Shown here piece after piece: positions 3,869 to 9,877 of a DNA stretch of 64,000 bases. The DNA is from Negativicutes bacterium (lineage in GTDB: Bacteria > Bacillota > Negativicutes > JAAYSF01), in contig JAQWAQ010000003.1 of assembly GCA_028707635.1 (NCBI GenBank), forward strand, positions 804 through 64,803. The letters are read 5' to 3'. Numbering within the stretch: position 1 is the stretch's first letter; every line of letters begins with the position of its first letter. The notes under the pieces were generated by a model. It saw only the letters and a program-made list of their open reading frames with translations, did not search any database and was not told the origin of the DNA. The position numbers and the translations under genes are program-made.

Positions 3869-5323
3869 TCATCCCTTTAGTCCCTTCAACCGCGGCCCCA
3901 TCAGCCGCTTATACCCCTCAACCCCCGGCTGATCAAACGCATCCACATTAGCCAACTCACCCTCATAGGCCACTGATAAGCACAGCAAATACAAAAGCTC
4001 ACCCAACTGATACGCCGTAAGCTTCGGCAAAACAAAGGTAGCATTAAACCGGTTGTCACGTGCCAGCGCCTCTGCATTGGCCTCCCGCGCAATATCAAGG
4101 GCCTGACTTAAACGAATTCCCGCGATCTCCGCCAACTTTGCTGCCACAGGAAACACATTCGGAATCACCGGATCAGAGTCCCACTCAGCCACCTTAACAA
4201 ACTGTACCACCTTATCCCGTTTGCCATCCTGATGCTGCTGGGTCTGGGCATGCATATCCGTAGTGCCCACCGCTACCACCGGCGTCCGGCCATAGAAAAC
4301 TTCCTGACCATCACGATCAGTCCGTTTGCCCAGCGACTCGGCCAGCAGCTGCACATACCATTCGGCTACTGACTTGAGGTTATCACCATATGGCATAAAA
4401 ACTTCAATATCCCGTCCATACTTTTCCGCGGCCAAGTATTTAAGCGCCGCATTCAGCAGGGCCGGATTTCGCCAAAATTCATCAGTCTGACAGGCCTCAT
4501 CCATGGCCTTTGCCCCGGCCAGAAAGCCATCAATATCAAACCCAATACACGCCGCTGTGACAAGTCCGACCTCACAGAAAATACTAAACCGTCCGCCGAC
4601 ACCGTCCGGCACACCGAACGTTGGCCACGCCATTTCACCCGCCAACTTTTTAAGCAGCGTTGCATTTTCACCTTCCAATGGATCAGTCACCGCCACAACC
4701 TCAACCTCAATCAAATCACTCTGCTTTTTCAGAGCATCATAAGCCACCATGAAATTAGACATGGTATCAAGCGTCGAACCCGATTTTGAAATAACAATGA
4801 GACAAATTTTACATTTACTCTCAGCTTCCCTCACTAAATGCTCCACCAACTCACTCGTCCGCCGCGGGTCAATATTATTGCCGCTAAAATACAACTTGGG
4901 GTAGCCGTCGCGCTCCGCAGGCGTTTTAGCATTCCAAAACTCACCGCACTGCACATCAAACAGCACCTTGTTTCCAAGATACGACCCACCAATCCCAAAT
5001 GACACCACAGTGTCCACACGATAACGCAGTGATTGGCCAAACTCCTTCAGGCGCTCAATCGACCCCAGCGAATTTAAATGTCCCTCTTCCACATAGGGAA
5101 GTTCGGTAAACAGCACCTTTTCCGGCTCCCCGTCCTTCGAAAAATGCCCCCGTACCTCACCTGTCGCCCGCATATGCTGAACAGCCTGATGCGCTTTTAC
5201 CAGCTGCTCACCCAAAGCATCAATATCGGTCTGGTTTACCTTGCCCTCGCCATACAAGTTTGTGTAATCAAACACAAAGCCTGACTGAAGCTTTAATGAA
5301 GTACCCGTAATATTTCTCCCCAT
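3869..5323 (-). CDS. pgi: glucose-6-phosphate isomerase
   Basis: GIGGSYLG, VISKSGSTLDT, VGGRFS, QLLAESLGK, FDQPGVE; ATG 5323 chosen over TTG 5338. Confidence 0.93.
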   Translation of the reverse strand: MGRNITGTSLKLQSGFVFDYTNLYGEGKVNQTDIDALGEQLVKAHQAVQHMRATGEVRGHFSKDGEPEKVLFTELPYVEEGHLNSLGSIERLKEFGQSLRYRVDTVVSFGIGGSYLGNKVLFDVQCGEFWNAKTPAERDGYPKLYFSGNNIDPRRTSELVEHLVREAESKCKICLIVISKSGSTLDTMSNFMVAYDALKKQSDLIEVEVVAVTDPLEGENATLLKKLAGEMAWPTFGVPDGVGGRFSIFCEVGLVTAACIGFDIDGFLAGAKAMDEACQTDEFWRNPALLNAALKYLAAEKYGRDIEVFMPYGDNLKSVAEWYVQLLAESLGKRTDRDGQEVFYGRTPVVAVGTTDMHAQTQQHQDGKRDKVVQFVKVAEWDSDPVIPNVFPVAAKLAEIAGIRLSQALDIAREANAEALARDNRFNATFVLPKLTAYQLGELLYLLCLSVAYEGELANVDAFDQPGVEGYKRLMGPRLKGLKG

Positions 5324-8999: not shown

Positions 9000-9076
9000 T
9001 CACGTGTGTTCTTTAAACAACAAAAAAGCAGTGTCAAGAGGAACCGTCCCGTGTGGCATGACATTAAAAAGTTTAC

Positions 9077-9105
9077 TTACGAAACTCCGTACGATTTGCT
9101 ATAAT
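9077..9105 (+). promoter_or_regulatory. sigma-A-type promoter
   Basis: TTACGA-17-TATAAT with extended TG. Confidence 0.55.
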
Positions 9106-9111
9106 AAATTA

Positions 9112-9260
9112 ATCCGATGACCAAGCCGCTCTAAGATTCCCTTCTTCTACAAGAGGGAATTATACCCTAAAGGGCACAGGCGAGCGGCTAAGTCCCTGGA
9201 TACGGTTCGGCTAAGATTTAGGTGGAGTTAAAACCCATCTAAATCAAGTCTCACTTTATC
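9112..9260 (+). ncRNA. candidate structured leader RNA or IS200/IS605-end-like element (family not identified)
   Basis: Several nested stems (AGCCGCUC 9124-31 with GAGCGGCU 9183-90; CAGGG 9177-81 with CCCUG 9195-99; internal hairpins; 11-bp hairpin 9216-9246) between a promoter and the RBS. Confidence 0.4.
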
Positions 9261-9280
9261 GCTACGAAAGGAGCTTACCA

Positions 9281-9877
9281 GTGACCTATTATCGAATACT
9301 TTCCTTACTTATTCTAGCAGCAGCTCCCCTCATGGCCACTTGGATTCCCGAGCAATGGGGCTGGGAGAACAGTGTCGTGGAATGGCTGCAGGTCACCGTT
9401 CTCGCGCTCGGTCTGTTTCTCTCCTGGAAAAAACCCAGCGGTTCTTTTGGGTTGTTTACCACACCGATTTGGCTGATTTTGATCGGACGGGAGCTCAGTT
9501 GGGGCCGGGTCTTCTTTCCACTGGGCATTGATGCGCACGGACCTTACTTTCCCGCGCTCAAGCAGCTTTGGTACGGATCGGCTGTGTATCCGATCATAGC
9601 CATACTCTTACTCGGCTGGATTTTCGCCATTATCAAATATAAATTATATAAAATTCCTGTCACTATGATAAAAAACAAAACTTTCCCCTGGATCAATCTT
9701 GCCGTCACGTTTCTAGCTGTGGCAACTACCCATGTTGCAGAACGGATACTGCATATGCAAAAGGTTGAGGAAATCGCCGAAACAATCGTATACGTCGGCT
9801 TCATCGTTCTTGCTTTACAAATAAAACAGGCTGTACTCAAGCCGAAAAACAACAAAAAGTACCTTGTCAATCAATGA
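9281..9877 (+). CDS. hypothetical multi-pass membrane protein
   Basis: GTG start with RBS AAAGGAG; about 5 hydrophobic segments; ENSVVEWLQ and GRELSWGR motifs. Confidence 0.75.
   Translation: MTYYRILSLLILAAAPLMATWIPEQWGWENSVVEWLQVTVLALGLFLSWKKPSGSFGLFTTPIWLILIGRELSWGRVFFPLGIDAHGPYFPALKQLWYGSAVYPIIAILLLGWIFAIIKYKLYKIPVTMIKNKTFPWINLAVTFLAVATTHVAERILHMQKVEEIAETIVYVGFIVLALQIKQAVLKPKNNKKYLVNQ

Follow-up and report, generated by a model that had tools for sequence, protein, structure and literature searches.

A 146-nt protein-less mobile repeat with paired subterminal hairpins lies between the promoter and the ribosome-binding site of a Negativicutes membrane-protein gene

The window (the whole 64,000-nt stretch of DNA analysed) contains a structured segment of about 150 nt between the promoter and the ribosome-binding site of a membrane-protein gene, and the question is whether this segment is an RNA leader belonging to the gene or a piece of mobile DNA. 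The initial annotation left two readings side by side: a new cis-regulatory RNA, possibly containing a pseudoknot, or a promoter-driven relic of an IS200/IS605 right end resembling an omega-RNA. What it had observed is largely correct; the regulatory-RNA reading is wrong, and the IS200/IS605 suspicion pointed towards the right class. Profile match, borders and empty site together delimit positions 9114–9259 (+ strand, as are all window features below) as a whole non-autonomous mobile element of 146 nt, a member of the subfamily carrying a 19-nt module.

The gene downstream (ORF 9281–9877, GTG start at 9281) encodes a membrane protein of 198 aa, is intact in the window and is preceded by a ribosome-binding site, GAAAGGAG, read from the sequence at 9266–9273. 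Upstream, an extended −10 element, TGCTATAAT, was likewise read at 9097–9105, with a weak −35, TTACGA, at 9077–9082; the weakness of the latter accounts for the absence of this promoter from the list produced by a consensus scan. Both the sigma-A-like promoter ahead of the leader and the ribosome-binding site behind it had been recognised correctly. The protein has no Pfam match, and a related-locus search with it as query returned none. Its homologues belong to Negativicutes, the closest being 86–87% identical and of the same length. In the three loci harboring these closest homologues, L001 (GCA_008761695.1), L002 and L010, the gene lies between phosphomannomutase and mannose-1-phosphate guanylyltransferase genes, in surface-polysaccharide loci, and in L003–L006 the guanylyltransferase gene adjoins the homologue. 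Homologues P0001–P0036 and the window protein constitute an uncharacterised family tied to the surface-polysaccharide locus.

L001, L002 and L010 share the divergent phosphomannomutase gene and the promoter block with the window and lack the element. Their empty site reads GCTATAATAAATTAAT/CGTTGCGAAAGGAGC (the slash marks the insertion point), i.e., GCTATAATAAATTAAT/CG...AAAGGAG; in L001 and L002 it is AAATTAAT/CGTTGCG, with a single TTAAT. In the window, 146 additional bases stand between AAATTAAT and CGCTACGAAAGGAGC. In the more distant loci L003, L004 and L005, too, the ribosome-binding site follows the promoter with no element in between, and a contig in metagenome run X2, derived from the genome of a relative, skips exactly 146 nt. 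The element is therefore not conserved upstream of orthologous genes, its absence extending over L001–L005 and L010. From these relatives it follows that the ancestral leader measured about 20 nt and that the window lineage gained 9114–9259. As the promoter block is identical in the element-free L001, L002 and L010, the promoter belongs to the host gene and is older than the insertion. We regard it as practically certain that 9114–9259 is an inserted mobile repeat rather than a dedicated regulatory RNA.

The same intergenic region shows other irregularities. A segment of about 53 nt at 9007–9059, GTGTGTTCTTTAAACAAC...GTGTCAAGAGGAACCGTCCCGTGTGGCATGAC with TGTCA/TGACA arms, is also missing from L001, L002 and L010; it is located right after CCTGCTCAC, upstream of the promoter, and looks like a small insertion or a REP-like unit. 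The right-end tail motif of the element is found upstream of the homologous gene's promoter in the element-free L005 (GTCTCACTTTAT, 2386–2397) and, as TCTCACTT(A/G)TAT, upstream of the promoter in the element-free L001 (~1628–1640) and L010 (~1737–1749). These motifs may be relics of older insertions into the same intergenic region.

Sequence searches place the window element in a large repeat family. An nhmmer search with the family profile matched 9114–9258 of the window (E = 3e-37). When Logan contigs of four metagenomes were compared with 9000–9400, 394 contigs of one metagenome overlapped the element; the overlap broke off sharply at 9112 and 9259/60, with unrelated flanks on both sides. 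Scanning for an exact core 21-mer yielded 61 stretches, mostly from Sporomusa and also from Dendrosporobacter and Sporomusaceae/Firmicutes MAGs. A left-end 24-mer yielded at least 107, adding Pelosinus, Desulfosporosinus, Syntrophomonas and other Bacillota MAGs among the matches listed, and a metagenome scan contributed a further 120 matching stretches. With a profile built from the copies, 205 distinct full-length insertions were recovered from the matches listed, mostly 125–130 nt long, with about 40 at 140–150 nt (the window type) and a few at about 163 nt. Among the copies recovered, the nearest one elsewhere is 88% identical to that of the window; neither the profile nor a sequence search detected a second copy within the 64-kb window, and exact 19-mer and 24-mer scans reaching into the variable right part returned two chance matches and none, respectively. 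About 96% of the copies are intergenic, oriented 148 to 152 with respect to neighbouring genes. A 24-nt stretch at their left end is the same in Negativicutes, Desulfosporosinus and Syntrophomonas, three positions of the search pattern being degenerate. The element is a dispersed, protein-less mobile DNA of 126–146 nt and a common genomic parasite of many anaerobic Firmicutes.

Several individual copies deserve mention. A plasmid of Clostridium tetani (records NC_022778.1 and NC_004565.1) matches the consensus in its left half, with 83.6% identity across 71 nt (E = 2e-9), which makes it probable that the family reaches Clostridium. A minimal derivative in a contig classed as viral (L289, 659–716; IMGVR_UViG_3300050336_000071) consists of TTTAT/CCGATGACTAAC, the right hairpin and CTAAGTCTACTTTAT; it joins the first 12 nt of the element directly to the right hairpin and apparently arose by deletion between two GACTAAC repeats. 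In a Sporomusa MAG (L103, 2515–4010), a copy is interrupted by two forward ORFs, by eye an IS256/mutator-type transposase, with the right-end tail of the family resuming at ~3981–4006. Metatranscriptome X27, from an anaerobic digester, contains two RNA-library contigs with other family copies and unrelated flanks, consistent with co-transcription of copies with neighbour genes; DNA carry-over is possible, and the contigs carry no information on the window locus.

The borders follow a simple rule. The target at the window locus is TTAAT (9109–9113), one mismatch away from TTTAT, and the empty site places the element directly 3′ of it. Among the 205 copies, the 5′ flank is TTTAT in 145 and TTAAT in 6, most others being one-mismatch variants, while the 10 nt 3′ of the element show no conservation. 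The last pentamer of the element itself is TTTAT in 184/205 copies; in the window this terminal motif, the putative right cleavage motif, occupies 9255–9259, where the end ...TCTCACTTTAT finishes at 9259. Where the 5′ flank differs from TTTAT, the 3′ pentamer never equals it (0 of 52 informative copies); since the empty site, moreover, has just one TTAAT, a target duplication is excluded. The target is thus the 5′ pentamer, and the 3′ TTTAT is the element's own. With its borders, the element starts as TTTAT/CCGATGAC... and ends as ...AAGTCTNCTTTAT/; the termini CCGATGAC... and ...AGTCTACTTTAT or ...AAGTCTACTTTAT are not complementary, i.e., there are no terminal inverted repeats.

IS200/IS605 elements insert 3′ of a T-rich pentanucleotide, are specific on the 5′ side only, do not duplicate their target and lack terminal inverted repeats (Tourasse et al. 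2014, PMC4227781), and TTTAT is among the targets of group A IStrons, including elements of the Negativicutes Megasphaera and Megamonas (PMC4227781). For ISGst2, TTTAT is the experimentally verified target and TAM (Meers et al. 2023, 10.1101/2023.03.14.532601), and the ISGst2 genome also has protein-less PATE-like elements mobilised in trans (10.1101/2023.03.14.532601). The present family follows these IS200/IS605-type insertion rules, with a T-rich target on the 5′ side, no duplication, no inverted termini and hairpins at both ends. The suggestion that the TCAC/TTTAT ending marks a transposon end holds, and IS200/IS605 is the right direction; the window, however, contains an entire miniature element in which both ends are present, rather than the relic of a right end.

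The fold described in the initial annotation is real. The minimum free energy (MFE) of 9108–9285 is −61.6 kcal/mol, whereas dinucleotide shuffles give −42.1 ± 4.2 (z = −4.65) and 0/200 of them are as stable, in agreement with the notion of a highly structured leader. Most of the proposed helices were recovered, namely an 8-bp helix of AGCCGCUC (9124–9131) with GAGCGGCU (9182–9189), a hairpin at 9135–9161 with a CUAC loop, and a CCC-UAAA-GGG hairpin at 9166–9175, as were the repeated CGGCUAAG (9185–9192 and 9208–9215) and an 11-bp hairpin without a U-tract, here placed at 9215–9245. An outer stem pairing CCGA..ACC with GGU.UCGG can be drawn in the window copy, but it is not the MFE pairing, and it is broken in most family copies by an A where position 9210 of the window is G.

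Across the family, the layout runs from the flanking TTTAT through CCGAT, GACTAAC-left hairpin-CTAAGTC, CCTGGATAAGGGC and GACTAAC-right hairpin-CTAAGTC to the terminal TACTTTAT. Both hairpins are long and imperfect, share identical feet (GACTAAC...CTAAGTC) and leave short single-stranded termini. In the main subfamily, the left one reads GACTAAC CCGCTCT AAG ACTCCCN-loop-NGGGAGT TA AGAGCGG CTAAGTC and the right one GACTAAC CTTCAGATGGGGTT AA AACCCCACCTGAAG CTAAGTC. The window counterparts are a left-end hairpin at 9119–9194 (foot GACCAAG...CTAAGTC, outer stem 9124–9131/9182–9189, inner hairpin 9135–9161) and a right-end hairpin at 9210–9252, supported by covariation (foot GGCTAAG...CAAGTCT, stem 9215–9225/9234–9245). 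The linker between them, CCTGGATACGGTTCG (9195–9209; family consensus CCCTGGATAAGGGC), occupies nearly invariant alignment columns and is the part most deeply covered in metagenome contigs.

An alignment of homologues had been proposed as a check on the structure; homologues do exist, and compensatory changes support the hairpins. In 70 copies filtered to <92% identity, 90.7% of the cells of the two-hairpin structure are paired, compared with 26–49% when the partners are slid, and 19 pairs change on both sides, compared with 9.0 ± 1.9 in shuffles, a number reached by 0/500 of them. The helices of the left hairpin (1–3) are 88–95% paired, alignment columns 29/72, for example, holding AU in 21 copies, GC in 20 and UA in 5; those of the right hairpin (4–5) are 91–95% paired, with 9 pairs changing on both sides. 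The window copy itself has TTTAG/CTAAA in place of the TTCAG/CTGAA of most copies, a compensatory change. Such covariation is no argument for RNA function, as it equally fits hairpins acting in single-stranded DNA. The apparent "RNA structure" corresponds to the two subterminal hairpins that mark the ends of the transposon.

The proposed pseudoknot fared worse. It was drawn between CAGGG at 9177–9181 and CCCUG across the 8-bp helix; CCCUG is present, at 9194–9198, but 9177–9181 reads CAGGC, leaving at most 4 bp (CAGG/CCUG). Furthermore, the CAGG arm and the CCC-UAAA-GGG hairpin both belong to an optional 19-nt module, TACCCTAAAGGGCACAGGC (9163–9181), whose search pattern has no match in 141/189 copies. 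Copies that lack the module conserve the partner CCCUGG just as well, so that a pseudoknot or switch receives no comparative support; no covariation for the arm was found in the family copies. As a sub-unit, the module is 19–20 nt long, TA(T)ACCCWAAGGGCACAGG(C), and stands after the left inner stem. Nine copies have a further, inverted one in the loop of the left hairpin, which would pair with the forward module; this arrangement, seen in L057 (7094–7256), is the 163-nt variant type. In L048 (7227–7359), the loop of the right hairpin contains the module. It thus seems to move by copying from place to place within the element.

These results bear directly on the reading of the segment as a gene-specific regulatory leader, a riboswitch or switchable pseudoknot controlling the membrane-protein gene. 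Its strong fold (z = −4.65), its position between promoter and ribosome-binding site and the alternative pairings available to the 5′ CCGA segment would suit such a role. However, the same leader exists without the element in every relative examined, more than 200 copies lie beside unrelated genes in both orientations, and the pseudoknot arm was partly misread, lies in an optional module and does not covary. The proposal of a new cis-regulatory RNA is refuted by the element-free orthologous leaders and by the dispersal of a multi-copy repeat in either orientation, and we consider a gene-specific control function very improbable. The initial remark that no known riboswitch consensus is matched agrees with Rfam, which at gathering score gave nothing at the element in the window or in 15 further loci. 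In E-value mode only chance-level matches appeared, the best being RF02682 (HDV-F-prausnitzii) at 9125–9223 with 17.2 bits and E = 0.83. A self-cleaving HDV-like ribozyme related to that of Faecalibacterium prausnitzii would share a P1-like helix and GCUAAGAU with the element, that is, a 7–8-bp helix enclosing a hairpin together with the GCUAAGAU motif. The score is nevertheless at chance level against a gathering score of 44, the alignment requires a 28-nt insertion in L3, neither P2 nor P1.1 can pair, and the supposed 3′ strand of P2 is part of a self-contained hairpin. The nested double pseudoknot is thus lacking, the likeness is not kept across the family (the inserted region is missing from the main subfamily), and the 15 further loci contain no copy recognised at any Rfam threshold. 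We give this identity next to no credence, less even than the regulatory leader. The insertion reading removes a false riboswitch candidate and illustrates that end hairpins of miniature transposons can mimic a structured leader, even with an apparent pseudoknot.

Taking the segment as a mobile-repeat insertion, we hypothesize that it moves by peel-and-paste as single-stranded DNA, with a Y1 (HUH) transposase of the IS200/IS605 type supplied in trans. With the hairpins as its recognition sites, the enzyme would cleave behind both the flanking and the terminal TTTAT and insert the element directly 3′ of a TTTAT-like pentamer, which at the window locus is TTAAT and lies about at the transcription start of the gene. 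Mobilisation of this type is moderately probable, judging from the insertion signature. The linker ATAA/ATAC, complementary to TTAT and situated 5′ of the right hairpin, is a candidate DNA "guide" for the cleavage sites. IS608 also places its DNA guide 5′ of the hairpin, as ATAA lies here. The analogy is with IS608/ISGst2; pairing of DNA guides with TAM and TEM has been described (10.1101/2023.03.14.532601).

Searches for the enzyme were negative throughout. Inspection of ORFs beside ~250 left ends and orphan right ends found no tnpA or tnpB, the neighbours that the initial annotation had suggested looking for next to the same end. The search for an autonomous parent, which covered ORFs downstream of left ends with no right end close by, ORFs upstream of orphan right ends, and viral contigs, turned up nothing beyond chance matches, a single interrupted copy and copies that were truncated or carried deletions. 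Using phmmer with E. coli InsQ (TnpB) and a yncK TnpA fragment, single-sequence searches of limited reach, no homologue was detected in ~2 Mb of loci and the window ORFs. Among the copies in five complete Sporomusa genomes, taking position 1 as the origin, 25/47 have the orientation predicted for insertion into the lagging-strand template and 22/47 the opposite one. A replication-strand bias is said to have been described by Ton-Hoang in 2010 for IS608/ISDra2-type elements, and its lack here counts against a simple IS608-like picture. The foot of the left hairpin begins 5 nt from the cleavage site. In IS608, the hairpin foot is further away from it.

The same mobile repeat could accordingly be moved by an enzyme other than an IS200/IS605 Y1 transposase, which would agree with the lack of a cognate tnpA in the sampled loci and of a replication-strand bias. 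On the other hand, the full insertion signature is that of classic IS200/IS605 elements (PMC4227781), and TTTAT-specific TnpA activity has been documented (10.1101/2023.03.14.532601); we therefore consider another enzyme rather unlikely. A further proposal, compatible with the mobile-repeat reading and adding to it, is that the right part of a PATE-like element serves as an omega-RNA scaffold: the transcript from the host promoter would carry the scaffold followed by the flank CGCUACGAAAGGAGCU as guide, and a TnpB encoded elsewhere would cut empty sites. The window copy does lie in sense directly behind a promoter, conservation is highest in the linker and right end, family copies are present in a metatranscriptome assembly, and PATEs often encode omega-RNAs used in trans, TTTAT being the TAM of the ISGst2 TnpB (10.1101/2023.03.14.532601). 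Against this, no tnpB was adjacent to the element or detected as a homologue in ~2 Mb of carrier-genome DNA, no Rfam model matches, orientation relative to genes is random, and deletion derivatives retain one hairpin only. Moreover, compared with known TnpB scaffolds, a 126-nt element that has ~60 nt on the right side of its left hairpin is short. The omega-RNA function is doubtful, considerably more so than the involvement of a different enzyme. Balancing the practical certainty of the insertion against the moderate probability of the enzyme, we judge a mobile-repeat insertion moved by a Y1/IS200-IS605-type enzyme to be the likely overall explanation.

For the host gene, the insertion shifts the ribosome-binding site and coding sequence 146 nt away from the promoter. 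The target TTAAT lies 4–8 nt past the −10 hexamer, about where transcription is expected to start, so the start is probably at about the target site and the mRNA of the membrane protein probably has the whole element as its 5′ leader. The insertion would thereby extend the untranslated leader from ~20 nt to ~165 nt without adding a terminator; terminator prediction on the leader gave none, and the 11-bp hairpin has no U-tract. In the MFE structure, the tail CUCAC pairs weakly with the start-codon region. The element would be a passenger for the host gene and any effect on expression incidental. The insertion is recent in this genome and, falling at about the transcription start of a surface-polysaccharide-locus gene, may alter that gene's expression.

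Among known systems, the closest parallels are the PATEs of Geobacillus stearothermophilus (ISGst-type) and the bcr1 repeat. The family resembles PATEs in its position 3′ of a T-rich pentamer, specificity restricted to the 5′ side, lack of duplication and of inverted repeats, subterminal hairpins at both ends, lack of coding capacity and presence in many copies per genome. It differs in that no autonomous partner with matching ends and no strand bias were found, in that the terminal motif equals the target (TTTAT for both, whereas ISGst2 ends in TTCAC), and in the left hairpin foot, which is 5 nt from the cleavage site; nor did any omega-RNA model of Rfam match.

The bcr1 literature (PMC3184786, PMC6542083, PMC6199540, PMC3446304, and through these Okstad 2004, Klevan 2007 and Kristoffersen 2011) presents bcr1, one of the group A "Bacillus cereus repeats", as an intergenic multi-copy repeat of ~155 bp, bordered by TTTAT and often located in untranslated regions, with stem-loops showing compensatory changes and a transposase that is not known. 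There, TTTAT is read as a duplicated target, and the repeat is described as restricted to the B. cereus group. The present family is likewise a ~150-nt intergenic, TTTAT-bordered multi-copy repeat with covarying stem-loops, but its hosts are Sporomusa, Pelosinus, Dendrosporobacter, Desulfosporosinus and Syntrophomonas, and duplication is excluded. In a comparison with published bcr1 copies (supplement of PMC2267715), both termini proved significantly similar: the score is 8 for the first ~34 nt (CCGA...TAAGAC.CCCA; shuffles −4.6 ± 3.0) and 10 for the last ~22 nt (AAGTYTCACTTTAT; shuffles −2.8 ± 2.7), in both cases for segments chosen after seeing the sequences. The family profile matched bcr1 copies no better than shuffled controls, and blastn against plasmids returned no Bacillus plasmid. 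Clot-1 repeats of C. tetani, from the same supplement, proved unrelated to the family.

Similar ends, with interiors that show no detectable homology, suggest that bcr1 and the present family are the same kind of element, and the similar termini link bcr1 to the TTTAT-targeting class. The family also provides direct evidence on a point left open in the bcr1 literature, namely that TTTAT borders are a target and an element-encoded terminus, not a duplication. We speculate, with even less confidence than for the omega-RNA function of the window copy, that both could belong to a Bacillota-wide superfamily of orphan TTTAT-targeting single-strand mini-transposons (in Bacilli, Negativicutes, Desulfosporosinus/Clostridia and Syntrophomonas), in which the conserved linker and right end would also serve as guide-RNA scaffold. 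Sense copies close to promoters might then supply guides, whose spacer would be the leader of the flanking gene, to a nuclease of the TnpB type or to a domesticated TnpB-like regulator, in either case encoded elsewhere.
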